Positions 3,744-34,388 of a stretch of DNA of 64,000 bases are shown here, piece by piece (the stretch's first letter is position 1; the number at the start of each line of letters is the position of its first letter). The position numbers were made by a program, and so were the translations under genes. The notes under the pieces are model-generated. The model made no database searches. It was given only the letters and a program-made list of their open reading frames with translations, and had not been told where the DNA came from. This DNA is from a plasmid: sequence record AP025670.1; one strand, 5' to 3'.

Positions 3744-3773
3744 TTTACAGTATTATAAAATGATACTGTGAAA
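3744..3773. promoter_or_regulatory. Inverted-repeat operator family member (TTTACAGTATTATAAAATGATACTGTGAAA) upstream of the 3975 operon
   Basis: ACAGTAT-N9-ATACTGT dyad; the same motif recurs upstream of many operons. Confidence 0.55.
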
Positions 3774-3974
3774 AGTAAAGTTTTCAGAACGACTAATCAC
3801 TCAGGAGAACTTGATAAGCACCAGAAAGCAATCTAAAGGTGGTTTTTCGGTGAGGTTAGTTCAGGGGCAACCTGCCGCTGCTGATTGAAAATCATCAAGA
3901 AGTGGCTTTTTGGTGGGGTTACGGTTTGAAGGGGTGAGTATGTGGGAACGTTGCACGGTTAAAGGGGGCCGCAC

Positions 3975-4583
3975 ATGAAAACGATAAAGCGGTTCATCGT
4001 ATGGGTGAATTACGGTCTTGAGGGTTGGAGCATTTTCGGATCGAGCGATGACTGGGATGAAGCGGTATCCATCCGTTCGGAAGCGATAGACGAATGCAAT
4101 ATTGACGAGGAAGACATCATCTTGGCAGAAAACAAAAACGAGCTGGTGGTAAAACCTGCGGCCAAGCAAATGACGGAGTGGCACCGGGAACTGGAAGCCG
4201 TCCTTATGACCTTGGATGACTGCCAGATGGAATGTGACGGTATGACATGGGCAGTAAGCCACCTACTCAATGAAGCGGGTGTACCTCATGACTGCATGTA
4301 TGGCTTTGTGCGAAACGAACAGACCAAGGACATCGTGACACCGCATTTCTGGGTTGTCCTGGATGATGGGTGGCTGGTGGATCTGAGGCTACGCATGTGG
4401 CTTGGCGATCACGACAACATTCCTCACGGGGTATTCCATCCCGATAACGAGCCAGGACTTTTCTACAAGGGAGACCCGGTTCAAAACCATAAAGGGATGA
4501 GACTGGGCAAAGCCGTCCTGGACATCATGACCGACGGAAAACTTTCACATGTGAAAGTTCCTGAACGACAAGACGGAGAGTAA
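3975..4583 (+). CDS. Hypothetical protein
   Basis: 202-aa ORF preceded by the IR operator and a stray iteron copy; the 16-bp palindrome sits in its last codons. Confidence 0.55.
   Translation: MKTIKRFIVWVNYGLEGWSIFGSSDDWDEAVSIRSEAIDECNIDEEDIILAENKNELVVKPAAKQMTEWHRELEAVLMTLDDCQMECDGMTWAVSHLLNEAGVPHDCMYGFVRNEQTKDIVTPHFWVVLDDGWLVDLRLRMWLGDHDNIPHGVFHPDNEPGLFYKGDPVQNHKGMRLGKAVLDIMTDGKLSHVKVPERQDGE
4542..4557. promoter_or_regulatory. 16-bp perfect palindrome CTTTCACATGTGAAAG (copy 1 of 8)
   Basis: Exact palindrome with AA...T flanks, at a gene junction. Confidence 0.6.
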
Positions 4584-4587
4584 TAGC

Positions 4588-5109
4588 GTGGAATTTGATT
4601 ACGACAAGTCAGTATCAAACGCACATCTTGAGGCCGCAGGCTGGGGTATGGATGCCTTTAACCACTCCAACCCATTTGAGAGTCATGTCATCTATGTGCG
4701 TGACTACCGCAACGATCACATCCGCCTGTTCACCATCAAGCAGGCTGACTTCGACACGATAAAGCTGCCACTTCACCTTACCTCCGACATGCTGGCTTCG
4801 GTGATCGCTGAGTTCGTATCGAAGGCAGCAAAAGGAGAGTTGAATACGAAGGAGTCCGACACGCTGGCTCCTGCCTTGGTTGGCTATGCCAAATCAACAG
4901 AAACCTACCGGAGCTGGCGGAGAGTGTCTGGAGTAACAGAGCGATTGCATATGGTCATCAATATCTACGCGGGTTCTGGATTGCTGAGACCTTTCATCGC
5001 TCGGGCTCCTGAGACCGTCCTGACGACCCAAGAGCTACTGGTCTTCTCATCACAGGTTAAGAGCATGGATGTATCCAATCATCCAGAGTGGTTTAGGGGC
5101 CGGAGGTAG
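4588..5109 (+). CDS. Hypothetical protein (GTG start)
   Basis: 173-aa ORF starting 5 bp after the upstream stop. Confidence 0.5.
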   Translation: MEFDYDKSVSNAHLEAAGWGMDAFNHSNPFESHVIYVRDYRNDHIRLFTIKQADFDTIKLPLHLTSDMLASVIAEFVSKAAKGELNTKESDTLAPALVGYAKSTETYRSWRRVSGVTERLHMVINIYAGSGLLRPFIARAPETVLTTQELLVFSSQVKSMDVSNHPEWFRGRR

Positions 5110-5111
5110 TC

Positions 5112-5633
5112 ATGAAGCCAGTTCTCTGGATATTCGTCCTGATCATCGCCCCTTTCGTCATTGCGAAAGTGGACCAGTGGCGCAAACGCGGCATTGGAGA
5201 CACCTGGGCGTGGTGGAAATCAGAGAACATGCCTTATGAGCTGCGCTCGGCCACTCTGTTTTTGTCCGAACAGGACATATCAACCACACAGCCGGTGCCC
5301 ATGCACGGCAGGGTTGATCAGGTGTACCAAACCAAGAATGGGGTTCTCATTCCTTTGGACACCAAGCTGCGCCAGGTAAACCACATCTATGAGTCGGACA
5401 TTATCCAGCTCTCGGTTTACCGGGTAATTCTGTCACACAAGTACAAGGCACCCGTTGCCAAGTACGGCTATGTCCGAACCGTTGTTGAGACAGCGGACGG
5501 GGATAGAGTCCGTTACATCAAGACAAACCTTCTCAGCGAAAAAGAAGTGGTCAAGCTGTGGCACCGCTATCAATCCATCCGTTCTGGTCAGGTAAAAACC
5601 TCCTGTTCCTGTGGCGGAAAGTTTCACATGTGA
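5112..5633 (+). CDS. Hypothetical protein with N-terminal TM/signal segment
   Basis: 173-aa ORF, RBS GGAGG; C-terminal ...SCSCGGKFHM, whose last codons are encoded by the palindrome. Confidence 0.55.
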   Translation: MKPVLWIFVLIIAPFVIAKVDQWRKRGIGDTWAWWKSENMPYELRSATLFLSEQDISTTQPVPMHGRVDQVYQTKNGVLIPLDTKLRQVNHIYESDIIQLSVYRVILSHKYKAPVAKYGYVRTVVETADGDRVRYIKTNLLSEKEVVKLWHRYQSIRSGQVKTSCSCGGKFHM

Positions 5634-5636
5634 AAG
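5621..5636. promoter_or_regulatory. Palindrome GTTTCACATGTGAAAG (15/16 match, copy 2)
   Basis: Near-perfect copy at a gene junction. Confidence 0.5.
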
Positions 5637-5729
5637 TTCTGGATTGAATCAGGGTTGCCCGAATTGGGCAGCTAGGCGGGGTTGCATTTTTGAAAAGTCC
5701 TGTACGCTGGTTGGTATAGGAGGTGAATA

Positions 5730-6203
5730 GTGACCCAGCTTAAACATAACCGCTTCGTCATGTTGGGGGCCTTGGTAGCGACGGTCGTAGCTGCCGCCAA
5801 TGGCTTGAGTTTTCTCACCCTTATGGCTGGTGGAATGACCCTTCTCCAGTTCATGGCTTGGAAGCAACAAGATGCTGTCCGGAGCCGGTTTAAAGCTGCG
5901 AAGGATGCGTTTGAAGCGTTGAACGTCATTGCGTTCGACAAGCACTGGGTAGGTTCAACCGCGACGGTCGCCAAAGTGTCGAACATGATCACTCCGCCCG
6001 AACGACTGGATAAGCCCTGGGCGGTGCAAGTTCTGGCCGTAACCAAAGGTGGGACGTGGTTCGCGGTGGATCTGCAAGTGACCGGCACTGACAAGGTTCA
6101 GATGCTTAGCCTCCACCAGCTTAGTGAAAAGGCGGCAAAGACCATGCTGGCCTTCGACCTCGAAGTGTATGAGAAATTTTTCGGAAAACCTGATGTTGCA
6201 TGA
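5730..6203 (+). CDS. Hypothetical membrane-associated protein
   Basis: 157-aa ORF, GGAGG RBS before a GTG start, hydrophobic N-terminus. Confidence 0.5.
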   Translation: MTQLKHNRFVMLGALVATVVAAANGLSFLTLMAGGMTLLQFMAWKQQDAVRSRFKAAKDAFEALNVIAFDKHWVGSTATVAKVSNMITPPERLDKPWAVQVLAVTKGGTWFAVDLQVTGTDKVQMLSLHQLSEKAAKTMLAFDLEVYEKFFGKPDVA

Positions 6204-6213
6204 GGACAATGTG

Positions 6214-14206: not shown

Positions 14207-14294
14207 ATCTTAATCATGTGACACATGAATAAGGTTTACATAAGGCTCCTTTCGTGGGAGCCTTATTCATATCAGACATGAATAAGGGGAAGGG

Positions 14295-14588
14295 ATGAGA
14301 TTGTCGTCAACTCAAAAGGACGTTTTGTTCATTCTATACGCAATTGAGGCCGGTGGAAAAGCCGAGCCTGTACCAGGTGTAAAAATACTGGAGATGATCA
14401 ACTCAGCTCGCCAGAGCGGTATTCATGGAACGAACTTCCGAACGTCATGCCACACGCTGGTGGAGAACGGCCTGTTGAACAAGTACCGGAATGCTTCTCT
14501 AAAGCTGGCCTTTAGGCTGACCGACGATGGCAGGGAACGTGCAGGAGAGATATACCGAAAACGGCTGGAAGAAGAGCAAGAGAAGTAA
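14295..14588 (+). CDS. Putative winged-helix DNA-binding protein
   Basis: 97 aa, basic, helix-rich; a terminator-like hairpin follows. Confidence 0.45.
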   Translation: MRLSSTQKDVLFILYAIEAGGKAEPVPGVKILEMINSARQSGIHGTNFRTSCHTLVENGLLNKYRNASLKLAFRLTDDGRERAGEIYRKRLEEEQEK

Positions 14589-14614: not shown

Positions 14615-14917
14615 TTAAACGGCAAAGCCGTAGTGGGTGCCGTCCGGAAGTTCAACATCGAGGCGTAGCTTGCCACCGGAGGCCTCAACGTACCGCTTAA
14701 TGGACGACAGCTTGAGATCTCGTCCAGGTTTTTCCATCTCGGAGACTGTCGGCTGTCTCACACCCAGAGATGCAGCAATTTCCCCCTGGGTAAGGTTCAT
14801 GCGATCACGAAGCTCTGCCAAGTGGATGTTCAGTAACATCTCAGTGGCCGCTTTCTGTGCTTTGGCAACAACCTCAGGCTTTTCTGTTGCCAGCATTTGG
14901 TCAAGAGTTCTTGCCAT
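14615..14917 (-). CDS. higA: HigA-like antitoxin (XRE-family HTH)
   Basis: 100 aa with HTH …LTQGEIAASLGVRQPTVSEME…; lies downstream of the toxin gene. Confidence 0.75.
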   Translation of the reverse strand: MARTLDQMLATEKPEVVAKAQKAATEMLLNIHLAELRDRMNLTQGEIAASLGVRQPTVSEMEKPGRDLKLSSIKRYVEASGGKLRLDVELPDGTHYGFAV

Positions 14918-14921
14918 AACG

Positions 14922-15272
14922 TCACTCCTTCTTCAATTTATCCAAGTGCGCCGCAAACTCACGGTCTGCAATTGGGATCATTACTTCATAAAACCTTTTC
15001 TCGTCCCCGGTCTTGTTACCGGCGCAGAGAAGAATCCCCTTACGCTTTGGATCGAACGCAAAGAACGCTCTGATAGGATCTCCTTTGCTTTGGACCCGAA
15101 GCTCTTTCATGTTGCTGTAGGATGAACCGTTAACAGTATCCGCGTATGGCCTCGACAGCATGGGGCCTCTATCTCGCAGCACCATCATCGAAGCCAGCAC
15201 GTTTGCTCTATCGGTATCATCCAGAGCATCGAACCACTCATCAAAGGTGTCGGTTGTCTCGATGACCCACAT
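14922..15272 (-). CDS. higB: HigB-like toxin (RelE/ParE superfamily addiction-module killer)
   Basis: 116 aa; the toxin-first, 4-bp-spaced gene pair is typical of higBA. Confidence 0.7.
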   Translation of the reverse strand: MWVIETTDTFDEWFDALDDTDRANVLASMMVLRDRGPMLSRPYADTVNGSSYSNMKELRVQSKGDPIRAFFAFDPKRKGILLCAGNKTGDEKRFYEVMIPIADREFAAHLDKLKKE

Positions 15273-15434: not shown

Positions 15435-15983
15435 ATGAACAACCTGCCCCTACTGCTCGATGCAAGAGAAGCCATTGACTACTACCACCAGCATCCAGGC
15501 ATGACTGATGCAGAAAAGGCCTATGTGGTCGCGTTCCTAAGCGGAGAGGGGCGTTCAAACAGTCAGATCAGAGAGGATCTGGGTATTGAGAAGGTCTATA
15601 CGGTTACACACCTGAAACGCGCCGGTACGCTATCGGAGGAAGAGCTAACACTCTGGCTCAGAAATCCACGCAAGATCACCCTGGGGCATGTGAGGGCCGT
15701 GGCTAAGTTACCTTTCAGCAAGAGAGAAAAGCTCCTGAGGGATCTCCTGCATACCAGGACACCGGTTCATAAATTTGAGGCGATAGCGAAGGGCAAAGAA
15801 GTGGACAGGGATGCAGACATTAAGCGCCTGGAGACCCTGATGAGCGATGCTACGGGTAGGCCTATCAAAGTTCGCTATAACCCCGCGAAGCGCTCCGGGG
15901 AACTGACGCTGGGATTCTTCACGCTCGATGACCTGGATGACGTGTGCAAGGCTTTGGGGTTTGATCCAAGCGAGCAGATGTAA
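15435..15983 (+). CDS. Hypothetical protein, possible DNA-binding
   Basis: 182-aa ORF. Confidence 0.5.
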   Translation: MNNLPLLLDAREAIDYYHQHPGMTDAEKAYVVAFLSGEGRSNSQIREDLGIEKVYTVTHLKRAGTLSEEELTLWLRNPRKITLGHVRAVAKLPFSKREKLLRDLLHTRTPVHKFEAIAKGKEVDRDADIKRLETLMSDATGRPIKVRYNPAKRSGELTLGFFTLDDLDDVCKALGFDPSEQM

Positions 15984-16030: not shown

Positions 16031-16060
16031 GTTTACAGTATCATAAAATGAATCTGTAAA
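16031..16060. promoter_or_regulatory. IR operator family member (GTTTACAGTATCATAAAATGAATCTGTAAA)
   Basis: Same dyad family; upstream of the 16073 gene. Confidence 0.55.
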
Positions 16061-17719: not shown

Positions 17720-17751
17720 CTCTCCTTTTCAACTTACACTTTTATCCTATC

Positions 17752-17779
17752 ACAGTATTAAAAAATGCAACTGTGAAAG
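17752..17779. promoter_or_regulatory. IR operator family member (TCACAGTATTAAAAAATGCAACTGTGAA)
   Basis: Dyad ACAGTAT…ACTGT upstream of 17810. Confidence 0.45.
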
Positions 17780-18872: not shown

Positions 18873-18901
18873 ATGTTGTTAATTTACTTGGGGAGGCGCT
18901 T

Positions 18902-20293: not shown

Positions 20294-20324
20294 ATTTACA
20301 GCATCATAAAATGAACTTATGATG
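20294..20324. promoter_or_regulatory. IR operator family member (ATTTACAGCATCATAAAATGAACTTATGATG)
   Basis: Dyad family, upstream of the AAA ATPase gene. Confidence 0.5.
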
Positions 20325-20365: not shown

Positions 20366-21829
20366 ATGAGCGATATTACACAGCAAATGGACAAACTTGA
20401 GATTCCAATCAAGTTGTCCTTTCCAGTCATCAACGTTAGCACTTTTGAGCTGGGCCGCGCAGAGAGCGTTTTCTCTGACATTGCAAAGAAAGTCGGCAAG
20501 CACTTTATTGTAATGCCATTCAAGAAGCTGCCTGATCCAGGCACGATGAAGGCAATGGTGGACGAGTCCAAGAAGTCCTCCAAAAACGGAGTTGTCGTGT
20601 TCGACACTTTCTTTTTCGACCGCCAACGTGCAAACCCGGAAACACTCCCAGCCCTCAAGTCATCACTGACCTATCTGGAGAATGAGGGGATCAACTACAT
20701 CATCGCTGGCAAAGACGTCTTCAATGAAGAGTTCGTTTATCACATCGATCTCCCGGCTATGAGCAATCAGGAAATCCTGAAACTGCTCCAGACCTGTGAA
20801 GATAACGTGAAAGATGGTGGAGTCTTCGAGAGCAACGAACGTGCTGTCATCGCAAACCACGCCTTGGGCTTGTCACACACCCAGATGAAGAACGTCTTCA
20901 CCTACTCCGCTTACTTGAAATTCAAGGGTGAAGAATACCTGGGCGAGATCCGAAAAGAAAAAGCTCACATCTTGCGTGATGTCGGCCTCGATGTGCTTGA
21001 GGCCATTGATATTGGGAATGTCGGTGGTCTCGAAAACCTCAAGGAGTTCCTCCAGATACGTAAAGCCGGTTGGGACAAAGACCTTCCGGTAAAAGGTGTC
21101 CTTCTGGCCGGTGTACCTGGTGGTGGTAAATCGCTGACGGCAAAAGCCGCTGCCGGTGTACTTGGCACTACCTTGGTTCGCCTGGATATGGGCCGTTTCT
21201 ATAGCAAGTATCTCGGTGAAACCGAGCGCCAGTTCAATCGTGCATTGCAGACCATTGAGCAGATCGCACCCGTTGTTGTGTTGATTGACGAGATGGAGAA
21301 GTTTTTTGGTAATGCCGATGGCGAACACGAAGTATCCAAGCGCCTGCTGGGCTCTTTCCTCTACTGGCTTCAAGAGCGCAAGAAGAAGATCTTCATTGTG
21401 GCGACGGCCAACCGGGTTCAGTCGCTGCCTCCTGAATTGATGCGAGCTGGCCGCTGGGACCGAGCATTCTTCATTGATCTGCCAAGTGTGGCTGAGCGCC
21501 AGAAGATTTTTGAGATCCACCTCGCCAAGCAGAAGGCCAACATCGCCGCGTTCGATATGCCTACGCTACTTCGTACCACCGAGGGATACACCGGGGCAGA
21601 GATTGAACAGGCCGTCATTGACGCGATGTATCTGGCGAACGCTCAGGACAAAGAGCTCAACAATGAAGCGCTGGTGGATGCGGTCACTCGCATTACCCCG
21701 ACCAGTGAAACTCGCCGGGAAGACATCAACCAGATTCGCAGTTTGCGGGATCAAGGCTTCTATCCGGCCAATAACTTCGATGTTCAAGAGCAGAATGGCT
21801 CTGGACGCAAACTTGCCATCGAGGACTAA
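20366..21829 (+). CDS. AAA+ ATPase (classic AAA, FtsH/Cdc48-like C-terminal domain) with a ~230-aa N-terminal domain of unknown function
   Basis: Walker A GVPGGGKS, Walker B VVLIDEME, second region of homology …ATANRVQSLPPELMRAGRWDRAF…. Confidence 0.85.
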   Translation: MSDITQQMDKLEIPIKLSFPVINVSTFELGRAESVFSDIAKKVGKHFIVMPFKKLPDPGTMKAMVDESKKSSKNGVVVFDTFFFDRQRANPETLPALKSSLTYLENEGINYIIAGKDVFNEEFVYHIDLPAMSNQEILKLLQTCEDNVKDGGVFESNERAVIANHALGLSHTQMKNVFTYSAYLKFKGEEYLGEIRKEKAHILRDVGLDVLEAIDIGNVGGLENLKEFLQIRKAGWDKDLPVKGVLLAGVPGGGKSLTAKAAAGVLGTTLVRLDMGRFYSKYLGETERQFNRALQTIEQIAPVVVLIDEMEKFFGNADGEHEVSKRLLGSFLYWLQERKKKIFIVATANRVQSLPPELMRAGRWDRAFFIDLPSVAERQKIFEIHLAKQKANIAAFDMPTLLRTTEGYTGAEIEQAVIDAMYLANAQDKELNNEALVDAVTRITPTSETRREDINQIRSLRDQGFYPANNFDVQEQNGSGRKLAIED

Positions 21830-21975
21830 GCGATGGAGTGGATTTTTTGGACTGTTCTTGCTGTGTCATTGATATTCCACTCAGAAGTCAGCGACTTAAT
21901 CAATGCTCTAGCTGAGTGGGCTAGGGAGCGAGCAGGTGCGGCCAGGAGAGAGCATCAAAACGGCAGAGAGGAGAA

Positions 21976-22314
21976 TTGACCGTTATGTACAAACAAGACA
22001 TTGAGAAGGGGATTGAGCTGCTCAAGCTGTGCAGCAAACTCCAGTCAGAAAAAGATGGAGTGGATAGACCAGAGCCTCTGGTTATCGACAAGAGTAAGGT
22101 GCTGGACCAGTTCGCCCGAGACGTTTCCACATCGATCACCTACATGAGTTCGTTGTTCAAGCTCATCCCCATGATGGAAAACCTTACCGAGCTTGGCCGA
22201 AAGCTGGAGAAAGAAGGAAAGATCGAAGTTTCTCTCGGGCAAGACTATTCCATTGCCGCGCTTAACTTTGTTATGTCGGAACACGGCATGACACCCGAAA
22301 CAACTCAGGAGTGA
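21976..22314 (+). CDS. Hypothetical protein
   Basis: 112 aa; the start is uncertain (TTG 21976 or ATG 21985). Confidence 0.4.
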   Translation: MTVMYKQDIEKGIELLKLCSKLQSEKDGVDRPEPLVIDKSKVLDQFARDVSTSITYMSSLFKLIPMMENLTELGRKLEKEGKIEVSLGQDYSIAALNFVMSEHGMTPETTQE

Positions 22315-22318
22315 TGAG

Positions 22319-22711
22319 ATGAGCCATATCGTAAAAGGCAAGGTGCAGGTCGCCTACAAAGACAAAGAGCTGCTGTTGAAGGCTCTGGAGGGAGTTGGCG
22401 TCGTTGTTGAAAACGAAAAGCTGTACCGCGTGGGCGCTGGCTACACCTTCGAGAAATACCCGATTGTTCTGATCGACCAGAACAACAAGGAGCACCGGAT
22501 TGGCTACAAGGAAAAAAACGGTGTTTGGGAGCAGTACCAGGAAAACTACGGCTCTTATGGCCGCTGGACGCAGCAGGCAAGCAGCAAGGTGCAGGATCGC
22601 TACATTGCCTTCCACTACGAGCAACAGTTGAAAGAGGAAGGTTTCAGCGTGACGGTGAAGCAGCATCACGATGGCACTTTGGAACTGGAAGCTGAGGAAG
22701 CTGTTTGGTAA
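22319..22711 (+). CDS. DUF1257-like protein
   Basis: 130 aa; the N-terminus MSHIVKGKVQ…LLKALEGVG resembles the DUF1257 family signature as I recall it. Confidence 0.5.
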   Translation: MSHIVKGKVQVAYKDKELLLKALEGVGVVVENEKLYRVGAGYTFEKYPIVLIDQNNKEHRIGYKEKNGVWEQYQENYGSYGRWTQQASSKVQDRYIAFHYEQQLKEEGFSVTVKQHHDGTLELEAEEAVW

Positions 22712-22759
22712 TAGCGCCAAGGCAATCAGATTAGTTGAACTTAACGACGAGGTGACAAA

Positions 22760-22954
22760 GTGAAAAAGGTAAACATCAAGATCAAGGGCGGCAAGATTGC
22801 TGCCGATTTCACGGGGTTCCAGGGTAAGACCTGTGAAGCGCTGGAGCAGCGTATTCGCCCGGAAGAGCTTGAAGTCGAAGAAAAAGAGCTGAAACCCGAG
22901 TACCACTTCAATGCTGGTCAAACCCAGCACGAAACGGAACAGAACGAATGGTGA
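22760..22954 (+). CDS. DUF2997-like small protein (GTG start)
   Basis: 64 aa, MKKVNIKIKGGKI…FTGFQGKTCEALE, the pattern I associate with DUF2997. Confidence 0.45.
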   Translation: MKKVNIKIKGGKIAADFTGFQGKTCEALEQRIRPEELEVEEKELKPEYHFNAGQTQHETEQNEW

Positions 22955-24132
22955 TGAGAAGGACAGGGCGCGTCCCCCTTCTTTTGCTGGTTGGTCTCAT
23001 GGTCGCAGCTCCTGCGGCCTTTGCCAGTGACTTTGTGACTGGCGTAATGGTGGGGCAAATGCTCTCAGATGACTCAGGCAGCAAGAAGGCAGAAGACACA
23101 GGCCCGGAGAGTAAAACGGTCATTGATTACCATGAAGGTCAGCCGGTTGTGACCAAAGTGGAGGCCTTCAAAAGTAACAAATGGCGCAAGCTGGATGGCC
23201 CTCAGGGCGGCTATTTTGTTTGCCCAGGTGAATACCGTAGCTATTCGGGAAGGCTGCGTTGTCGCGTCCATGATGACGGGCTCAATGGTTTTATGGGCGG
23301 TATGACTGATGCTCAGGAGCTACCGCTTCAAGAAGCTCTGACCAAGTTGGAAGGTAAACCCATCTCCCTGCAAACCATTGAAGTCCACGGCAACAACCTG
23401 GCAGTCAAATACCAGTTAGCACCACCAGCACAAACGCACGTCAAAACTCAGGATCTGGGGGTGGTCAAGCAGGATGGTGAAACGCAGAAGTCTGCCAGTC
23501 AACAATCAGCGTCATCCACAGTGACTGCACCAAAGAGTGAACCTCCCAAGCAGATTAGTGCTGCACAAGACACCGACCGCAATACCAGTGCGTTTCAAAG
23601 TCCGTTCGAGGAGGTAAGTGACTCCATGATCGGTCTAATGGATAGCTCTTTCGTCAAAGTCATAGCGGGGTTGATGCTGGTGTTTGGGGTTGCTAGTGGA
23701 ATTATGAGGCAGAGCCCATCAGGAATTGTGATGGGGATAATGCCTGCAATTATGATCATGACCGCGCCAACGGTTATTCGTACCATGTTCGATACAGGCG
23801 CGGCCAGTACCAAGCCAGTGGAAGATAGCGGAAGCTCATTTCCTTTCTTCTTGGTGGCAATAGTGCCGGTGCTGATTTTCTTTGCCTATAGAGCTTTTAT
23901 GAACAACCGGAGCGACTCCGAAATTGATGAGTTGTTAAGAGAAGCCCGACGTGCTGAAAGGGCTGAACGACCAAGCAATGAGCCTCCCTCAGTGGATGAA
24001 CTCCGTGAGCGCCAGCAACAAAACCCAGAAAGAGAACCGGTGGTTGTCAGCTCATCAGCTCCGGCACCAAAGGTGCAAAAGGAAGAGCCAATCGAAGTAC
24101 AGCCAGGCAAGCGCAAAATTATTTTGGATTAG
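22948..24132 (+). CDS. Secreted/membrane protein with C-terminal KRKIILD tail
   Basis: Signal peptide, central TM hairpin, charged C-terminal region ending …QPGKRKIILD; its N-domain is paralogous to the 24488 product. Confidence 0.55.
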   Translation: MVMRRTGRVPLLLLVGLMVAAPAAFASDFVTGVMVGQMLSDDSGSKKAEDTGPESKTVIDYHEGQPVVTKVEAFKSNKWRKLDGPQGGYFVCPGEYRSYSGRLRCRVHDDGLNGFMGGMTDAQELPLQEALTKLEGKPISLQTIEVHGNNLAVKYQLAPPAQTHVKTQDLGVVKQDGETQKSASQQSASSTVTAPKSEPPKQISAAQDTDRNTSAFQSPFEEVSDSMIGLMDSSFVKVIAGLMLVFGVASGIMRQSPSGIVMGIMPAIMIMTAPTVIRTMFDTGAASTKPVEDSGSSFPFFLVAIVPVLIFFAYRAFMNNRSDSEIDELLREARRAERAERPSNEPPSVDELRERQQQNPEREPVVVSSSAPAPKVQKEEPIEVQPGKRKIILD

Positions 24133-24143
24133 TGGGGTAGGTT

Positions 24144-24491
24144 ATGAGCAAAAAGCGCATCGTAATCAAAAATGGTGAGGTCTGCGGGTTTGCCGATGAG
24201 GTTTCCTTCAAAGGCCTTGAAGTGCAGGAATACAGTAAAACAAGGGTTTCGCGCATCGTGCCGACGAGCGGCATTCTAATGATTGCGTTCTATGTTATTC
24301 GCGGACTTTGTTCAGACGAGTCAAAGATTGCGGCATGGACTCGTGTTTGGCGTTGCCAGTGGAAGGTGCTGATCGACGGTAAAAGCTATGGACCATTCAG
24401 CAGTCGTGCGGATGCTATCTCGTTCGAGAAGGACGAGATCTACAAACAAGGCAAATTCTTTGCCGATGCCACTCACGAGGCGGCAGTATGA
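24144..24491 (+). CDS. Hypothetical protein
   Basis: 115-aa ORF. Confidence 0.4.
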   Translation: MSKKRIVIKNGEVCGFADEVSFKGLEVQEYSKTRVSRIVPTSGILMIAFYVIRGLCSDESKIAAWTRVWRCQWKVLIDGKSYGPFSSRADAISFEKDEIYKQGKFFADATHEAAV

Positions 24492-24916
24492 TGACACGGG
24501 CGGCTATGGCCGCGCTGTTATCCGCGTTGGTAATAGGCCTTGTGTCTGATTTGTCCGCACAAGAGCTGGTGGTAAGCCAGGTGGCTATAGACAAGTCCAC
24601 TGAGGTGGAGAAAGAAGCTACCTTCCACAACCGCAAGTGGGTGTTAAGGACGGGGCAGGTTAGTGGATTCTTCATCTGCCAAGGAGATAACAAAGACATT
24701 TACTACCGGCATGACAGGGTGGGCGCTCACTGCCAGAAGACATCGACTGGGTGGCGCAATGTACTGGGTCTCAGGGACGATGTTCCGGAAGTTGAGCTGA
24801 GCGTGTACCTGGGGACCGTTGAAGGTGTCCCCGTGAAAGTCCTTCATCAGGAAGTGGATGGTTACGATCTGAAAGTGCAGTACAAGGTTGCACGTAAAGG
24901 GTCAGCAAATGAGTGA
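24488..24916 (+). CDS. Secreted protein, paralogous to the N-domain of the 22948 product
   Basis: Signal peptide; shared …KW-R-G…GFFICQGD / GYFVCPGE… segments. Confidence 0.5.
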   Translation: MMTRAAMAALLSALVIGLVSDLSAQELVVSQVAIDKSTEVEKEATFHNRKWVLRTGQVSGFFICQGDNKDIYYRHDRVGAHCQKTSTGWRNVLGLRDDVPEVELSVYLGTVEGVPVKVLHQEVDGYDLKVQYKVARKGSANE

Positions 24917-25472
24917 GAGTGTGCGTCGGTCAACGCCGATGGTAAAGATTAAAGTCCTGCCGAGTTTCGTAGGGGTTCCCTTCCCGTCGGTGCTACTTAT
25001 CGTTGCGGGGCTCCTTAATGGCCCTTTGTGGGGCTTTGCCGCATTCGTCTTTCATATCGTCATCAAGCGGTACATCTACAGAGAATACCGGAGGTTGCCA
25101 TATCCGATGCCAACCGGCTCAAGGCCTATGGATGAGTTGAGCGAGCTCCTTGTAAAGGGGATACCGGAGGAATTTTTCCGGCGGCTTGACGCAGCTTGCA
25201 GCTCTGATGCGTCAGTACAAATAACCTGCCCAAAGAAATACCGGATGCTCAAAATGTCGTTGAATCGCTATGCCAACCGCGCTGGTTGTTACCCGCAGTT
25301 CCGGGAGGGGGATGAAATAGCGATTGAGGTAACAGAGCAGAGACCAAGAAAAGCAGGAGCAGGGAAGGGCTTTCCAAGTATTCAAGATCTGAAAGCGTCA
25401 GAGGGTGTTCTGAGTGAACCGGAGCAGCCTATCGAAATTCAGAAAGATAAGCGCAAGATTATCTTGGATTGA
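24909..25472 (+). CDS. Membrane protein with C-terminal KRKIILD tail
   Basis: 2 TM helices then a cytoplasmic domain ending …QKDKRKIILD. Confidence 0.5.
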   Translation: MSESVRRSTPMVKIKVLPSFVGVPFPSVLLIVAGLLNGPLWGFAAFVFHIVIKRYIYREYRRLPYPMPTGSRPMDELSELLVKGIPEEFFRRLDAACSSDASVQITCPKKYRMLKMSLNRYANRAGCYPQFREGDEIAIEVTEQRPRKAGAGKGFPSIQDLKASEGVLSEPEQPIEIQKDKRKIILD

Positions 25473-25483
25473 GGTGGGTTGGA

Positions 25484-26053
25484 ATGCGGTCATTTTTATA
25501 CAGAATATTGCTTCTTTGCTTCGTCATTATCGTCCAGATAGGGCTAATCGCCATTGATGCGAGCCCGTTGGTTGTTGCTATGTTCCTCTCGCTAACAGCT
25601 TTAGTCGCTGGGGTCTGGATGGCGTACCTTCATTCCCGATTTTTGATGGCGGTGACTCCAGTAGTTATCTCTGTGCTAATGGCGACCCTCGCCATGAAAA
25701 TGTTTGAGCCGAGACTCTTTGTTTCTGCCAGCGAAAAAGGCTGGTTCCCTTTGTCATTGTTCGTCTCGATACCGTTTTACTTCTACTTGAGTTACTTGCT
25801 TGAGATAGAGGAGAAGAGACGTACATTCCGGGCCAATGTGATTGGGTTTTTGCGTGGAGTTTCGGAAGAGATCCGTCGTTCAACCAGAGAGCATAGAGAT
25901 CAAGGTGAGATAAGACACGGTGGAACAGAGCTGGGGAGTATTGACGAACTACAAAGGGGCGAGGCCAAAGAGCCAGAAGTCATCAGCTCTACATCGGACC
26001 AGAAAGAACAAGGCACTCCCAAGCGAGACAAGAGAAAAATCATTCTGGACTGA
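25484..26053 (+). CDS. Polytopic membrane protein with C-terminal KRKIILD tail
   Basis: 4 TM helices, ends …KRDKRKIILD. Confidence 0.5.
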   Translation: MRSFLYRILLLCFVIIVQIGLIAIDASPLVVAMFLSLTALVAGVWMAYLHSRFLMAVTPVVISVLMATLAMKMFEPRLFVSASEKGWFPLSLFVSIPFYFYLSYLLEIEEKRRTFRANVIGFLRGVSEEIRRSTREHRDQGEIRHGGTELGSIDELQRGEAKEPEVISSTSDQKEQGTPKRDKRKIILD

Positions 26054-26055
26054 AC

Positions 26056-26601
26056 ATGGAACAAATCAGAAAAGGCTTAACCCTCGAATACGCAAAAGAG
26101 AAGCGTGAGAAGCTCTTGGCGGAGCTCAAATCAGATGAACACTACAGCCAGACTGAAACAGTAGCCTATGGGCACCACGACCCGCTCAGCGTTCCTGTGG
26201 CAGCCTGCGATAGTTGTCATGGCCGGGCGCAAATGCAGAAGGTTATAGGTCCTCCTGTGCGCTGGAATATGGTCTGCCTGGGTTGTGGGAAGGCGATCCA
26301 GCAAATCCAGAAACGACCGTGGCAAGCAGCAATGGCGTGGAACCAAATTAACTTGGGAACACAGGACTACAGACAACTGCCCCTCTTTGGACTTGGGAGT
26401 CTGTCTCCTGAATCAGCAAGACAGAGAATGGTGGGAATACGCAGAAACCTGGAGCTGAGAAAGAGCCTCGCCGGTATCGAGAGGACGATAGCCCACAAGG
26501 AAGGTCAACGCCCACCAGGGAAAGAGTACCAGCAACGACTGGAAGCATATCTGCAATGGGCCATGCTGGCGCTGAGGTTGCTCAAAGTCAAAACAAGTTA
26601 G
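26056..26601 (+). CDS. Zinc-ribbon protein
   Basis: 181 aa, CDSCHG…CLGCG; a terminator follows (26622-26650). Confidence 0.5.
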   Translation: MEQIRKGLTLEYAKEKREKLLAELKSDEHYSQTETVAYGHHDPLSVPVAACDSCHGRAQMQKVIGPPVRWNMVCLGCGKAIQQIQKRPWQAAMAWNQINLGTQDYRQLPLFGLGSLSPESARQRMVGIRRNLELRKSLAGIERTIAHKEGQRPPGKEYQQRLEAYLQWAMLALRLLKVKTS

Positions 26602-26658: not shown

Positions 26659-26689
26659 TGTTTACAGTATCAAAAAGTGATGCTATAAA
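26659..26689. promoter_or_regulatory. IR operator family member (TGTTTACAGTATCAAAAAGTGATGCTATAAA)
   Basis: Dyad family upstream of the ParB-like gene. Confidence 0.5.
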
Positions 26690-26717: not shown

Positions 26718-27656
26718 ATGGCTGTTATCAACTCACTCCGCGCTCTCAAAGGCGTAACCGCCCCCGAAGAACTGAAAAAAGGGGATGGATTCACTATCTC
26801 TCCTCAGCTTCTGCTGGAGGAAGAAGGGTTTAACACCCGTGGCGCTTTCTGCGAGAACTACTACGAGCGCCCGGACATCAAAGCTGGTATTCGAGTGCTG
26901 GCCGATGCTTACAAGCGTGGCGACTATGTTCCGCCGATCATCGTCAAAGTTATCGACGGAAAGGTGTATGTCCGTGAAGGTCATCGCCGTCGCCGCGCCA
27001 TCCTGCTTGCTATCGAGGAAGGTGCCGACATCCAGTTCGTGCAGGTCGTAGAGCACAAGGGCGATGAAGCCGAACAGAGCCTTCTGATCGCCACCAGCAA
27101 CGATGGGCTCCCTCTTTCTCCACTTGAGCGAGCCGTGATCTACGCTCGGCTTGCAAACTGGGGGTGGAGCGACCAGATGATTGCCCAACGTGTTGGCCGC
27201 TCGGCTGAGCACGTTCGTATCGCCCGTGCCCTTCTGGAGATGCCTCTGGAACTGAAACGGATGATTCAGGAAGGCTCTGTGGCTGCCACCTACGCTCAGG
27301 AGCTCTACAACGAGCACGGCACCAACGCTGTTGAGATCCTGAAAAAGGCGCAGGAAGAACAGGCCAATGGCAATGACGGCAAGAAGGCCCCGAAAAAACT
27401 GACCAAAAAGTCTGTCGAGAAAGGTCCCCGCCTGGGCAAAAAGGTGGTTGAAGCCATGCACCGAGGCGTGAGCTCTATTACCAGTCGTCTGGACAACATC
27501 AAGCCGAACGATGACGGTGAAACGTTCACCCTTACCCTGAGCCGGGAAGATGTTGATGCGTTTCAGGAGCTGAAAGCCAAGCTGGCGGAGCTGGAGCCCA
27601 AAACTGACGAGTCCAATGAAGACCAGCAAGAGCTGGATTTGGCGGGTAATCAGTAA
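26718..27656 (+). CDS. ParB/Srx-domain protein (ParB-like nuclease domain; KorB/ParB paralogue)
   Basis: ParB box II-like GHRRRRA; 312 aa; lysine-rich linker. Confidence 0.7.
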   Translation: MAVINSLRALKGVTAPEELKKGDGFTISPQLLLEEEGFNTRGAFCENYYERPDIKAGIRVLADAYKRGDYVPPIIVKVIDGKVYVREGHRRRRAILLAIEEGADIQFVQVVEHKGDEAEQSLLIATSNDGLPLSPLERAVIYARLANWGWSDQMIAQRVGRSAEHVRIARALLEMPLELKRMIQEGSVAATYAQELYNEHGTNAVEILKKAQEEQANGNDGKKAPKKLTKKSVEKGPRLGKKVVEAMHRGVSSITSRLDNIKPNDDGETFTLTLSREDVDAFQELKAKLAELEPKTDESNEDQQELDLAGNQ

Positions 27657-30770: not shown

Positions 30771-30800
30771 ATTGCAGTATCATTTTATGATCGCTACAAT
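30771..30800. promoter_or_regulatory. IR operator family member (ATTGCAGTATCATTTTATGATCGCTACAAT) in the parA promoter
   Basis: Dyad family, immediately followed by palindrome copy 7. Confidence 0.5.
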
Positions 30801-30802
30801 CT

Positions 30803-30818
30803 TTCACATGTGAAAGTT
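30803..30818. promoter_or_regulatory. Palindrome CTTTCACATGTGAAAG (copy 7), about 45 bp upstream of parA
   Basis: Exact copy. Confidence 0.6.
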
Positions 30819-30864: not shown

Positions 30865-31650
30865 ATGGCAAAAGTAATCAGCTTCGCCAACCAGAAAGGC
30901 GGAGTGGGTAAGAGTACCCTCTGTATCCAGCAGGCCTTTTATCTGGCGTTACAGAAGAAAAAGAAAGTGCTGGTCTTGGATATGGATGGTCAGGGGAACA
31001 CGTCCTCTCGACTGGCCCCCAGACGAGAGCTTGAGGATGGTGACTACGAGCCCATCCTCACAGGAACCAAAACCGCAGAGCTGTTCGCTTACGAGCTGGA
31101 CGGCATTGAGGTCATGCACTGCCCTTGCGGTGCAGACCTCATTCATACGCCGAAAAACGACCCGGATCTGTTTGAGATGGAGGCTGTGCCTCTTGACCAA
31201 GCCATGAATCCGGCTCGCCATTTGGCTGAGCTGTTTGAGAACTACGACTACGTGCTGATTGATTGTCCGCCTAGCCTCGGCAGAAAGCTGGTGGCAGCGT
31301 TGGTGATGTCTACCCATGTAGCATGTCCGGTAAAGCTCTCTGGCTTCGCTGTGGACGGCGTAGAAGGTCTCCTGAACACGATTATTGGTGTGCGCGAGGC
31401 GTACAACCAAGATTTGGAGATCCTGGGCATCGTGATCAACGACATGGACCGCTCTGTCAATCACGACAAAGCCCTCAAGTCGCTGGAGAACACAGTTCCG
31501 GATCTGCTGTTTGAGAACAAAATTATGCACCGGCCTCCGCTCGATACGGCGACGACTGATGGCATCCCTGTCTGGGAGCTTCGCTATGGACATGTCGCGG
31601 CCAAAGAGGTTGAGGCGGTGTTGGAAGAACTATTAGAGAAGGTGGGCTAA
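30865..31650 (+). CDS. parA: Partition ATPase ParA
   Basis: Deviant Walker A KGGVGKST; 261 aa; followed by parB. Confidence 0.9.
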   Translation: MAKVISFANQKGGVGKSTLCIQQAFYLALQKKKKVLVLDMDGQGNTSSRLAPRRELEDGDYEPILTGTKTAELFAYELDGIEVMHCPCGADLIHTPKNDPDLFEMEAVPLDQAMNPARHLAELFENYDYVLIDCPPSLGRKLVAALVMSTHVACPVKLSGFAVDGVEGLLNTIIGVREAYNQDLEILGIVINDMDRSVNHDKALKSLENTVPDLLFENKIMHRPPLDTATTDGIPVWELRYGHVAAKEVEAVLEELLEKVG

Positions 31651-31653
31651 GCG

Positions 31654-32835
31654 ATGGCATTGAACAATTTAAAAGGCCTGTCCGAACTTGCTAAAGCCGC
31701 CAAAGGCAAGAAAGGCAAAGAGGTTCTTACCGTACCTGTTGACGACGTTGTATCCAAGGTCCAGGTTCGTAAGCGCTTCCGTAACATTGAAGAGCTGGCG
31801 GCAACCTTGCTGACCGAAGGGCAGCAGTCTCCGATCATCGTGTTCCCGAAGAACGAAGAAGGCAAGTTCGTCATCCAGAAAGGGGAGCGGCGTTGGAGAG
31901 CATGTAAACACGCTGGTATCGAGACCATTGACCTGGTGGTGAATGATAAGGTCCAGAACAACTTGGACGAGACTGCTGGTGAGCTGATCGAAAACATCCA
32001 GCGGGATGACTTGACTCCGGTAGAGATTGCCGAGGCGTTAAACCTGTTTATTGAAGAAGGTTGGAAGCAAAAGGATATTGCTGATCGGCTCGGTAAGAAT
32101 ATCACTTTCGTATCTACGCATCTGTCGTTGCTCAAGCTACCTGACTGTGTGCGTGAGTTATACGATAATGAAGTATGTTCTGATACAGAGACCTTGAATA
32201 ACCTTCGTCTCTTGTTCGATCTGAATGAAGAAAGATGTCGCGCCGTCTGCGCGGTGGCTATGTCTGACGGGATTACTCGTAAACAAAGCCGTGAGCTGCT
32301 GAATGATGCCAAACGTATCAAAGACGAAATGGAAAAAGGCCCACTGACTGGCTCCCACCAGAATGATGAGCTTGGCGCTGGCAACACCGACGAGCAATCC
32401 CTCAACTCGGGTGGGGATGGTACGTCGGAACAAACCGGGAATGACGACCTGAACCTTGCCCAGGAGGAACTGGAAGGGGGTAAAAATTCCAATGGTCAGG
32501 ACGATGATGACGAAGACCCTTTGCGTGATGAAGAGGGTGAGCACAAAGATCCTGTCAAGCAGCCAGATAACAGCGGCAAGGACAAAGATGAAGAAGGCGG
32601 TGATGCTCTTCCTCCTCTGCCGAAGGACAAGGAATGGAAGAACGTCCGGGCTGACAGTTTGATTTTTGCTGTCAACGTTAACCTGGATGGCGAGACCAAA
32701 CGTGGAGTCATCATGACCGACCGTGTTGCTCTGGTTCCGTCTACTGTCTGGGTTAAAACGCTCGATGGCGAAGGCAAGGAAAAGCATGTTCATGTGCCTG
32801 TGTCAGACATTGAACTCCTGAGTGTCGAAGGCTAA
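31654..32835 (+). CDS. parB: Partition protein ParB
   Basis: ParB box II GERRWRA, HTH, acidic Asp/Glu-rich linker; 393 aa. Confidence 0.9.
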   Translation: MALNNLKGLSELAKAAKGKKGKEVLTVPVDDVVSKVQVRKRFRNIEELAATLLTEGQQSPIIVFPKNEEGKFVIQKGERRWRACKHAGIETIDLVVNDKVQNNLDETAGELIENIQRDDLTPVEIAEALNLFIEEGWKQKDIADRLGKNITFVSTHLSLLKLPDCVRELYDNEVCSDTETLNNLRLLFDLNEERCRAVCAVAMSDGITRKQSRELLNDAKRIKDEMEKGPLTGSHQNDELGAGNTDEQSLNSGGDGTSEQTGNDDLNLAQEELEGGKNSNGQDDDDEDPLRDEEGEHKDPVKQPDNSGKDKDEEGGDALPPLPKDKEWKNVRADSLIFAVNVNLDGETKRGVIMTDRVALVPSTVWVKTLDGEGKEKHVHVPVSDIELLSVEG

Positions 32836-32877
32836 TAAAGGAGGCCCAGCCAGAGAGGTTGGGCCTGTCAAGAACAG

Positions 32878-33156
32878 GTGAATATGAAGATCTCACAGGA
32901 CATGAAAAGAAAATTTGCTTTGGTGAATGCCCTGTCTAAAACGGAGAAGCCAAGTCTCCAAGACCTTCACAAGGCAACAAATATTCCTGAATCAACGATC
33001 AAGAGACAGTTGTCTGCCCTGCGTGATGAGTTCGGAATGAATATCTTGTTCGTCAGGGAGTCTACCGGCGAACGAGGTGCCACCGGCTACTACATGCTGA
33101 CAGACTGGGGGATCTTAGACAGGTCTTCGTTCTTGAACCGGTACGGAAAACTGTAA
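32878..33156 (+). CDS. Small winged-helix protein downstream of parB (position corresponds to IncC '053')
   Basis: 92 aa, HTH-like …IPESTIKRQLSALR…; a bidirectional terminator follows. Confidence 0.55.
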   Translation: MNMKISQDMKRKFALVNALSKTEKPSLQDLHKATNIPESTIKRQLSALRDEFGMNILFVRESTGERGATGYYMLTDWGILDRSSFLNRYGKL

Positions 33157-33183
33157 GGTGCCATAGAGCAGCGCATTGAATGC

Positions 33184-33210
33184 AAAACCCGCCAATCGGC
33201 GGGTTTTTTT
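33184..33210. terminator. Bidirectional rho-independent terminator
   Basis: AAAACCCGCCAATCGGCGGGTTTTTTTA. Confidence 0.6.
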
Positions 33211-33844
33211 ATGCTGCCACGGTAGCGGCGGTTGCTGGAGGTTTTTCGGCGTAGTAGGCGATGTTCTTGGTTCGTCTGCTAAGGGTGTCTATGCCGACGA
33301 TACTCAGCGTTTTGGGAGTGGTATTGCGGGACTCGAAATAATGGAATAGCTGGATCATGCAGCACTTCACCATCAACGGATCGATGTCTTCCAGGTAGAT
33401 TGAGGCTTCTCTCAATGCTTCGGGACCGTGGTTCTCGATCAGGTTTTCCATCCAGTGAATGGCGTTGATGCCAGAACCACAGCAGGGCTCATAAAAGTCT
33501 GCCGAAGACTGTGAGCCAACAATGAGTGACATCAAGCGGCCAATCTCTGGAGGAGTGGGGAAGTAATTGGTGCCCTTCTTGTGGAAGCCAGACATGCTTA
33601 GGACGTAACCCAAAACATCGCTGGTGGGGTCGCGCTTAATGGCGGCAGACAGGACGTGAGAGAGCTCGAAGGCGACCGGCTGAAGTTCTTCCGGGATCTC
33701 CTCCTTGGCTGGGTATAGGCCAGTCTGCAAGTATGCCCACTGGTCAATAAAGGCCTCAACAAACCGAGATGTGCCCATTCTGTATCGGGACTGCTCGATG
33801 AGAGATAAAGCCTTGGATGTAAGTTGCTGTGTTTCTGGTGACAT
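33209..33844 (-). CDS. Short HsdM-like N6-adenine methyltransferase-domain protein that lacks the catalytic NPPF/Y motif
   Basis: Motif X-like NYFPTPPEIG and motif I YEPCCGSGINA are present; the protein ends before motif IV. Start chosen at ATG 33844 (GGAG RBS). Confidence 0.55.
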   Translation of the reverse strand: MSPETQQLTSKALSLIEQSRYRMGTSRFVEAFIDQWAYLQTGLYPAKEEIPEELQPVAFELSHVLSAAIKRDPTSDVLGYVLSMSGFHKKGTNYFPTPPEIGRLMSLIVGSQSSADFYEPCCGSGINAIHWMENLIENHGPEALREASIYLEDIDPLMVKCCMIQLFHYFESRNTTPKTLSIVGIDTLSRRTKNIAYYAEKPPATAATVAA

Positions 33845-33935
33845 AAGCGCTCCAGTTTGTTCTGACGAAACATTCAAGAGGTAGAAACGAAGAACCCCGC
33901 CGAAGCGAGGTTCTTTGCTTTCCTGCCTGATCGCC

Positions 33936-34079
33936 TTAATGCCGAAGCAAAGACGTCTTGATAAAGTCGGGGCAACCGGACATTTCCCGGTCGATGAAGT
34001 CCTGACGTTTCGCCAGCGGCCATTTCATGAACGCCGCGAGCGGGATGCGCTTATTCGTGTTAGTATTGCCTTGCAGCAT
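33936..34079 (-). CDS. Unlisted 47-aa ORF with a strong RBS
   Basis: AAGGAG 7 nt before ATG; MLQGNTNTNKRIPLAAFMKWPLAKRQDFIDREMSGCPDFIKTSLLRH. Confidence 0.35.
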   Translation of the reverse strand: MLQGNTNTNKRIPLAAFMKWPLAKRQDFIDREMSGCPDFIKTSLLRH

Positions 34080-34158
34080 AACAAAGCTCCTTAATTGCTT
34101 GATTGTGTTGTAAGGGCTGCAACGAAGGTCGAAGAGCGATGCGGCCCTTATTTATGAT

Positions 34159-34185
34159 TATTACAGCATCATAAAATAATATCAA
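34159..34185. promoter_or_regulatory. IR operator family member (ATTACAGCATCATAAAATAATATCAAG)
   Basis: Half-site conserved. Confidence 0.4.
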
Positions 34186-34215
34186 GAGACAATAAAACGA
34201 TACCAAGAAACAAAA

Positions 34216-34231
34216 CTTTCACATGTGAAAG
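34216..34231. promoter_or_regulatory. Palindrome CTTTCACATGTGAAAG (copy 8)
   Basis: Exact copy between two IR operators upstream of 34398. Confidence 0.6.
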
Positions 34232-34357
34232 TCTCCCCGCTGTCCACCTCGCACACTCCAAACGCCCAAATAACTTGTCTATCTGCCCAAAATGGGCGCG
34301 TAAGCGTCCGATAGAAAGTAATTGTTAGTGAGATATTGACTACACGGAATATGGCTA

Positions 34358-34388
34358 TATCATAGAATCATAAAATGATGCTGTAAAA
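34358..34388. promoter_or_regulatory. IR operator family member (TATCATAGAATCATAAAATGATGCTGTAAAA)
   Basis: Dyad family, 10 bp upstream of the gene start. Confidence 0.5.

Follow-up and report, generated by a model that had tools for sequence, protein, structure and literature searches.

We analysed a plasmid-borne stretch of 64,000 nucleotides (sequence record AP025670.1; the window, at its full length) and characterised a family of 29-bp inverted repeats that occupies its backbone promoters. The window is 99.7-100% identical to IncC plasmids between positions 15000 and 21000, and up to 45316 it matches pBML2537 (NZ_AP022377) base for base, except for two single-nucleotide polymorphisms. The window represents the backbone of a conjugative resistance plasmid of the IncC (A/C) type. 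The annotation places repA, higBA and the parA-parB-053 operon on it, and a long series of plus-strand genes, mostly with no assigned function, extends from 3975 to 41637. A first-pass annotation had pointed out ten copies of the repeat in this region as a second operator family, besides a 16-bp palindrome.

All ten copies are present, with register starts that differ by 0-3 bp from the positions given there (Table 1). They align without gaps in one 29-bp register with the consensus tTTACAGyATCAtAAAATGAtrCTgTaAA, which forms an imperfect 13+3+13 dyad (tTTACAGyATCAt-AAA-aTGAtrCTGTAAa). A literal search with the 29-mer, allowing up to 3 mismatches, returned two copies only; the family is therefore degenerate. 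Exact 5-mer dyad counting recovered parS, the binding site of ParB, and failed to recover the degenerate family. Using a symmetric weight matrix, we scored each copy by leave-one-out. In 30 Markov-random sequences of 153 kb, the best score per random plasmid averaged 11.0 bits, with a maximum of 17.3 bits. The copy at 30771 in PparA, the parA promoter, is the sole one in the window that is not significant by itself; its orthologues are kept in pRA1 (IncA), pAhD4-1 (Aeromonas) and pVPS91 (pAQU-type, Vibrio). The copy listed earlier as weak, at 19198, proved genuine. As had been claimed, all ten lie outside annotated genes, in a first 45 kb of which 10.6% is non-coding (P ~2e-10). Scanning the whole of pBML2537, we found three further copies, none of them within a gene, which gives a total of 13. 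The motif family is real, occupies at least 13 backbone promoters and stands far above chance. Literature searches on the dyad found no description of it, with some subscription papers (Hancock 2017/2020 and Lang 2012 among them) out of reach. The observation is confirmed and extended here.

Table 1. Dyad copies and associated features (window positions unless pBML2537 is named; scores in bits).
Feature	Position	Strand	Score	Leave-one-out score	Sequence or comment
Copy 1	3744-3772		41.2	39.7	TTTACAGTATTATAAAATGATACTGTGAA
Copy 2	16032-16060	+	39.5	37.4	TTTACAGTATCATAAAATGAATCTGTAAA; heads gene block 16073/16324-17363
Copy 3	17749-17777		30.6	26.7	ATCACAGTATTAAAAAATGCAACTGTGAA; same subtype as sfx and eexC copies
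Copy 4	18846-18874	+	38.9	37.5	Promoter TTTACA-17-TATGAT, 10/12 sigma-70 match
Copy 5	19199-19227	+	30.6	27.0	ATTACGGCATCACATTATAAGCCTGTAAA; upstream of gene at 19360
Copy 6	20295-20323	+	33.4	31.3	Promoter TTTACA-17-TATGAT, 10/12 match
Copy 7	26661-26689	+	36.4	34.2	TTTACAGTATCAAAAAGTGATGCTATAAA; 29 bp upstream of second ParB-family gene (26718-27656)
Copy 8	30771-30799	+	22.9	15.5	Within PparA; weakest dyad
Copy 9	34160-34188	-	26.7	22.9	ATTACAGCATCATAAAATAATATCAAGAG; parS at 34217
Copy 10	34359-34387		37.5	35.9	ATCATAGAATCATAAAATGATGCTGTAAA; directly upstream of operon from 34398
Extra copy	pBML2537 74438				Upstream of sfx; faces minus-strand gene
Extra copy	pBML2537 147010				Upstream of eexC; faces minus-strand gene
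Extra copy	pBML2537 147562				Upstream of acr1
repA	1-1101				Annotation
higBA	14615-15272				Annotation
parA-parB-053	30865-33156				Annotation
ParB with KorB domain	31654-32835	+			KorB domain E = 1.7e-38; binds parS TTTCACATGTGAAA
053, 90 aa, winged helix (Pfam HTH_43)	32884-33156	+			Third gene of parA-parB-053
parS core at PparA	30802-30815				PMC10954446
Other parS core starts	4543, 5622, 9206, 9665, 15994, 19330, 34217				

Copy 1 is the best dyad, with 11 Watson-Crick and 2 G-T pairs among its 13 arm pairs. It has a minus-strand PAPS-reductase-family gene (start 3706) on one side and the plus-strand operon from 3975 on the other. A minus-strand TTTACT-16-TATAAT found by the sigma-70 scan (3779-3752) overlaps it with the -10 at the dyad centre, and its flanking genes are near-silent in pVCR94 RNA-seq. 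The parS at 15994 precedes copy 2 by 38 bp, and copy 3 separates a minus-strand membrane-protein gene (17378-17713) from a plus-strand DUF1643 gene at 17810. A terminator-like hairpin (18816-18835) precedes copy 4, and the open reading frame 18902-19165 follows 28 bp downstream; copy 5 lies between a hairpin (19169-19189) and the parS at 19330. The AAA-ATPase operon (20366-26601) begins 43 bp downstream of copy 6. Copy 7 has a -10 hexamer that reads TATAAA, and its position is retained in pRA1, pAhD4-1 and Alcanivorax. In copy 8, the -35 TTGCAG and the -10 TACAAT are 17 bp apart, and parS comes directly after. Copy 9, with a near-identical counterpart in Alcanivorax, lies 81 bp upstream of the minus-strand genes 33936-34079 and 33209-33844 and shows a minus-strand TTGATA-17-AATAAT with a TG in the same scan. 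Copy 10 contains a minus-strand TTTACA-17-TATGAT, and a plus-strand TTGACT-16-TATCAT overlaps its left arm, which serves as the -10.

The first-pass annotation had placed every copy 10-60 bp upstream of a plus-strand operon, which needed correction on both points. The copies at 3744, 17749 and 34160 are 36-81 bp from minus-strand gene starts, and the next plus-strand gene is 2-66 bp away for most copies and ~120-200 bp away at 3744 and 19199. Its remark on terminators before several copies agrees with our data, since terminator-like hairpins precede 18846, 19199 and 30771. Between copy 5 and the parS at 19330 we also noticed TTGCCCAAAATGGGCG (19242-19257), which we take to be similar to an AcaCD/SetCD-type activator box; if it is such a box, the gene at 19360 would have three regulatory inputs. 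A sequence similar to it, TGCCCGAAATGGGCA, lies upstream of the copy at the second ParB-like gene (encoding ParB2) in an Alcanivorax contig.

Performing a sigma-70 consensus scan over 3-42 kb, we obtained six 10/12 matches, and all six fall on motif copies. If positions 1-6 of the register are taken as the -35 and positions 24-29 as the -10, many copies have the form of a sigma-70 promoter whose spacer is 17 bp long; hexamers resembling -35 and -10 were found at the expected distance of 16-18 bp. All 13 copies are intergenic and span or overlap -35/-10 elements. These data support the earlier proposal that the dyad overlaps the -35, the spacer and the -10, so that RNA polymerase would be occluded once a protein binds. 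Relative to the best -35/-10, the motif is placed differently from copy to copy. Such varied placement of a constant dyad is what an operator, and not a plain promoter, should show.

Four of the 13 copies fall on promoters already published as independent of AcaCD, namely PparA, Pacr1, Psfx and PeexC. A 173-bp PparA fragment is a strong promoter in cells lacking the plasmid, and its hexamers were predicted identically (PMC10954446). In lacZ fusions, whole IncC plasmids repress PparA 8-11-fold, and parAB053 alone represses it ~1.5-fold (PMC10954446). Because parAB053 alone represses far less than the whole plasmid, an additional backbone regulator was postulated at PparA, and the authors concluded that Sci, an SGI1 protein, probably targets it (PMC10954446). 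Pacr1 fires constitutively, and both Acr1 and Acr2 repress it (PMC4207636). The sfx and eexC genes are constitutive and AcaCD-independent, with native promoters that are active without the plasmid (PMC11493245).

We also checked the RNA-seq values, in reads per kilobase per million (RPKM), of an acaCD deletion of pVCR94deltaX (NC_023291). Beside the two strongest dyad loci, vcrx006/007 showed 7 and 0 RPKM, and vcrx008-011 and vcrx034-036 showed 0. Behind degenerate dyads, the values were 867 for parB, 1234 for 053, 320 for sfx, 598 for eexC and 133 for acr1. Silent genes at strong dyads and active genes at weak ones are compatible with graded repression.

The copies are conserved beyond IncC. 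IncA pRA1 retains 13/13 of them, and the IncC and IncA sequences differ by 11.9% substitutions inside the sites against 24.5% in the 30-bp flanks. The spacer positions A9, T10, A12 and T18 are nearly invariant, though sigma-70 does not need them. In pAhD4-1, whose proteins are ~60-72% identical, ~12 copies with the same consensus stand at orthologous promoters. The Pacr1 core is conserved in three lineages (Acr1 65-72% identical) while the flanks are unalignable. We found ~13 copies in pVPS91, including PparA with its parS and a full dyad at Pacr1; they are intergenic by annotation, with one exception that overlaps the annotated 5' end of an eexC-like gene. The Alcanivorax contig has two copies in 9 kb. 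An A/C-like plasmid of Comamonas (Betaproteobacteria) has four, plus an eexC-like copy seen by eye.

The motif has twofold symmetry with each arm conserved towards the consensus, and many copies carry 4-7 mismatches in the 13 arm pairs. Over 39 copies, arm pairing was 69.2% against 71.4% in shuffled partners (487 of 500 shuffles as high), and arm covariation was 0.162 against 0.194 in the shuffles. The arms therefore drift independently towards the consensus, which argues for a protein-binding dyad rather than a hairpin.

The 16-bp palindrome noted besides the dyad is the IncC parS (TTTCACATGTGAAA core plus flanks), which was bound by ParB in an electrophoretic mobility shift assay (PMC10954446). 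On pBML2537 there are 15 parS cores, one of them with a single mismatch, and a parS lies within 150 bp of 5 of the 13 motif copies. The dyad differs from parS in sequence and positions; the two are neighbouring families. Our results thus uphold the claim of a second dyad family, distinct from the 16-bp palindrome, at backbone promoters.

We propose, with a probability of roughly 0.6, that the dyad is a promoter-embedded operator family for a plasmid-wide repressor on the A/C backbone. This operator interpretation is well supported indirectly and is unproven. The outer parts of the dyad would serve at the same time as the -35 and -10 of a host sigma-70 promoter, or overlap these hexamers, and the inner part, ATCA-N5-TGAT, would fall within the 17-bp spacer, a part not read by RNA polymerase. 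Such promoters would drive AcaCD-independent operons, that is parAB053, sfx, eexC, acr1-acaDC, the second ParB-like gene, methylases and many uncharacterised genes. A plasmid-encoded dimeric DNA-binding protein on the dyad would block RNA polymerase, shutting near-perfect dyads almost completely and merely damping degenerate ones. The promoters would be active when the plasmid first enters a cell and be shut down with the build-up of the repressor. The repression would probably be combined with the KorB-domain ParB, in the manner of KorA plus KorB on IncP-1, because parS lies within 150 bp at five of the promoters.

Which protein would bind? Six complete plasmids share a core of 46 annotated genes; five of them carry the motif clearly and the Comamonas plasmid in a weaker form. 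The regulator-type DNA-binding proteins of this core are only ParB, AcaB, AcaCD and 053, and 053 is the sole small helix-turn-helix (HTH) protein among them. ParB and AcaCD have known sites, which are different from the dyad. 053, which the first-pass annotation had named as a candidate (at 32878), passed each of the comparisons made here: it was found in every lineage examined, and its homologues adjoin ParB or ParB2 in Alcanivorax, Comamonas and marine contigs. In one Comamonas contig (L026, 10001-11286), a ParB2 homologue is directly followed by a 053-like HTH_43 gene; this arrangement suggests a general pairing of HTH_43 proteins with proteins of the ParB type. The predicted recognition helix of 053, IPESTIKRQL, is shared by the five consensus-sharing lineages (one conservative L/I change in pAhD4-1) and differs in Comamonas and the marine contig, where the dyad differs too. 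053 is reported to be indispensable, although ParAB-driven stabilisation and partition do not need it (PMC10954446). Indispensability with no partition role fits the pattern of a 'kil-override' repressor. From these sequence comparisons, we tentatively infer that 053 is the best candidate binder of the motif, at somewhat less than even odds. A fuller version, which we hold to be doubtful, would make 053 a KorA-like global repressor from the HTH_43 family that, with the CTP-type KorB-domain ParB at nearby parS, silences ~1/3 of the A/C backbone after establishment; the circuit would include the regulator that SGI1 Sci disarms to destabilise its helper plasmid. If 053 were such a global repressor, this would explain why it is indispensable though it is no partition factor.

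Several points weigh against the operator interpretation or against 053 as the binder. Overexpressed parAB053 did not fully repress PparA (PMC10954446). Either the weak dyad is poorly bound by 053, or the missing regulator is another protein; the result does not settle the question, because the dyad of PparA is the weakest. Shared ancestry confounds the link between the 053 helix and the operator, and the binder may instead be a host factor or one of the uncharacterised core proteins, such as 3975-4583 or 5112-5633. The copies in the Comamonas plasmid are few and score 18-24 bits only. Several copies have a poor -10 (TGTAAA or TGTGAA) that misses the key A at position 2. The pVCR94 RNA-seq replicates are very noisy, and the silent loci are also near parS, so ParB or the H-NS-like Acr2 could account for the silence.

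Four other explanations have to be weighed, two of which dispense with a dedicated binder. The copies might simply be related sigma-70 promoters that look palindromic through the TTTACA/TGTAAA mirror and bidirectional firing. The match of the outer arms to -35-like and -10-like hexamers, the location of several copies between divergent genes, and the activity of the sfx, eexC and parA promoters in the absence of plasmid factors all agree with this. It leaves unexplained the near-invariant spacer ATCA...TGAT and its conservation amid diverged flanks, the copies that overlap one promoter element only, the plasmid-dependent repression of PparA beyond ParAB053, and the silence beside the 10/12 promoter at 3744. 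We consider it unlikely. A hairpin in RNA or in transferred single-stranded DNA, such as a processing site or a single-strand promoter, is disfavoured and very improbable. The best copies could form a 13-bp stem, and one symmetric double change from IncC to IncA (ACAG..CTGT to ACGG..CCGT) speaks for a hairpin; yet the compensatory pairing expected of a hairpin is absent over the 39 copies. Single-strand promoters, where known, fold over a few hundred nucleotides (PMC12672017), and with promoters working as predicted, transcription would start only downstream of each copy.

The other two explanations keep an operator and change its binder. Ner-family proteins bind bipartite sites of ~30 bp, and Acr1, a Ner-like 90-aa repressor of the acr1-acaDC operon with EnrR and Mu Ner as nearest solved relatives, could be the binder, the extra PparA regulator and the Sci target at once. 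It represses Pacr1 in trans in the absence of the plasmid (PMC4207636). The motif stands between the -35 and -10 of Pacr1 in five lineages, and Acr1 is encoded outside parAB053, as the postulated PparA regulator must be. Nevertheless, Acr1 is absent from the A/C-like plasmid of Comamonas (tblastn, E up to 0.01), which still carries the motif directly upstream of SLT-acaDC, plus other copies. At Pacr1 of IncC and IncA, the left arm alone fits the motif family, and Acr1 could in truth bind a separate dyad, TGTCAGTTTGTGACA, which comes shortly after the Pacr1 -10. Deletion mutants of acr1 are viable, with raised transfer (PMC4207636). Taking these points together, we find a role of Acr1 at the whole family improbable. 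TGTCAGTTTGTGACA itself occurs once in IncC and once in IncA (pBML2537 147602-147616; pRA1 139770) and is conserved in Photorhabdus and metagenome relatives, not in pAhD4-1; it may be a local Acr1 operator. We give a similarly low chance to another binder, either a host factor or an uncharacterised plasmid protein of the conserved core. Plasmids from Enterobacterales, Vibrio, Aeromonas and Alcanivorax carry an identical motif, its half-sites resemble everted LexA or TyrR half-sites, and the six-plasmid core includes function-unassigned proteins. PparA, though, is strong in plain E. coli and repressed only with the plasmid present; a host factor alone is therefore not its repressor. None of the function-unassigned core proteins has a recognisable DNA-binding domain. 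Comparing by eye with the consensus sequences, we rejected the sites of LexA, CRP, Fur, TyrR, IHF, Fis and Lrp on arm order and spacing. The LexA (SOS) box has CTGT-N8-ACAG; here the order is ACAG-N15-CTGT, with the arms everted and further apart.

Individual plasmid proteins were screened as binders by their presence or absence across plasmids and by each candidate's own conserved upstream sequence. The 97-aa protein 14295-14588, which the first-pass annotation had favoured, has its own, different conserved operator, TTCATGTGnCACATGAA, and is lacking in two motif-bearing plasmids, pVPS91 and the one from Comamonas. Another small HTH protein it had named, the open reading frame at 39049, has no family match and lies outside the conserved core. 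The 182-aa 'ParB_C' regulator (15435-15983) is absent from pRA1, pAhD4-1, pVPS91 and pVCR94deltaX, all motif-bearing. KfrA gave no match in pVPS91, which carries the motif. The gene of the second ParB-like protein (26718-27656; HTH_ParB, GHRRRRA box) has the motif directly upstream in IncC, IncA, pAhD4-1 and Alcanivorax; it was rejected on its absence from pVPS91, with ~13 motif copies, and from pVCR94deltaX. Two Comamonas plasmids have a diverged form, CAGTACCATAAA, upstream of this gene, and in one of the two, from C. testosteroni, the parS core is changed too, to TTTCGCATGCGAAA. No clear motif stood out around ParB2 homologues of 50-63% identity, and a protein-based scan of genome contigs returned two loci only.

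The protein 14295-14588 is annotated wrongly as 'ParM' and has no Pfam match. Upstream of its gene, 14212-14290 holds the palindrome AATCATGTGACACATGAAT and a degenerate second copy, with a hairpin between them. TTCATGTGnCACATGAA also stands upstream of its homologues (47-60% identical) in unrelated plasmid and phage contigs, and the helix TNFRTSCHTL is invariant across the family. The protein is probably an autoregulator with a third operator type.

The reference plasmids showed further features. In pVCR94deltaX, the equivalent of window ~15.4-30.4 kb is naturally absent and seven motif copies are retained; the missing segment carries six motif copies, the second ParB-like gene and the 182-aa regulator. 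pVCR94deltaX is a widely used model; results obtained with it may not mirror regulation on the full backbone. pBML2537 and the window diverge at 45316-45317, at an IS26 end (GGCACTGTTGCAAA) just upstream of the expected traI start. Window 45317-64000 consists of accessory DNA, in which we found an operon for sucrose utilisation and parts of Tn3 type; its 48-50 kb part has 39.6% GC. pVPS91 carries a type IV CRISPR-Cas locus (csf1-5) at 122352-128161. A related metagenomic plasmid contig (L025, 17744-18295) has a repeat array with ~61-bp spacing that adjoins Cas-like genes.

IncC and IncA plasmids are major carriers of carbapenemase and multidrug resistance. For these plasmids, transfer control (AcaCD, Acr1/2, AcaB) and the centromere (parS/ParB) are already known. 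The dyad, standing at 13 promoters, would give a direct handle on the control of a large block of maintenance, exclusion and probable anti-defence genes. The putative operator offers an explanation for the essentiality of 053. The dyad may likewise be the place where the PparA regulator postulated in 2024, and Sci, the anti-plasmid protein of SGI1, act. If the interpretation is confirmed, the operator or its binder could serve to destabilise these plasmids.

A plasmid-wide repressor with repeated promoter operators is a principle well established on other plasmids. The StbA/ArdK sites of IncW R388 and the KorA/KorB/KfrA sites of IncU RA3 are repeated operators in many backbone promoters, which allow an expression burst on entry and then shut-down; their proteins and sequences are unrelated to the dyad system. 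A further comparison is with the IncC parS/ParB system (Kiss laboratory, Nucleic Acids Research (NAR) 2024, PMC10954446), with the same plasmid, the same promoters and an extra regulator at PparA; its parS sequence is distinct, and the dyad is not mentioned there. The AcaCD boxes are the other plasmid-wide promoter motif of the A/C backbone (PMC4207636). They are, however, activator sites upstream of the -35 at transfer promoters, whereas the dyad overlaps the core promoter at AcaCD-independent promoters.

In function, KorA/KorB (and TrbA) of IncP-1 RK2/RP4 comes closest, and the comparison with KorA/KorB, which the first-pass annotation had drawn, holds in part. The KorB-domain ParB with its short palindrome scattered over the backbone, the second palindrome inside the core promoters of maintenance operons, the adjacency of both site types at some promoters and the small HTH protein encoded in the partition operon are all shared with IncP-1. 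The part that did not hold is KorA itself: the KorA family gave no match among the small proteins of the region, and 053 is an HTH_43 winged-helix protein instead. It follows parB, whereas KorA precedes or overlaps incC. The operator here is 29 bp long, in contrast to the 12-bp OA operator of IncP-1, and its sequence is not related to OA. By analogy, it is reasonable to view the likeness as one of mechanism, with the A/C backbone standing outside the IncP system.

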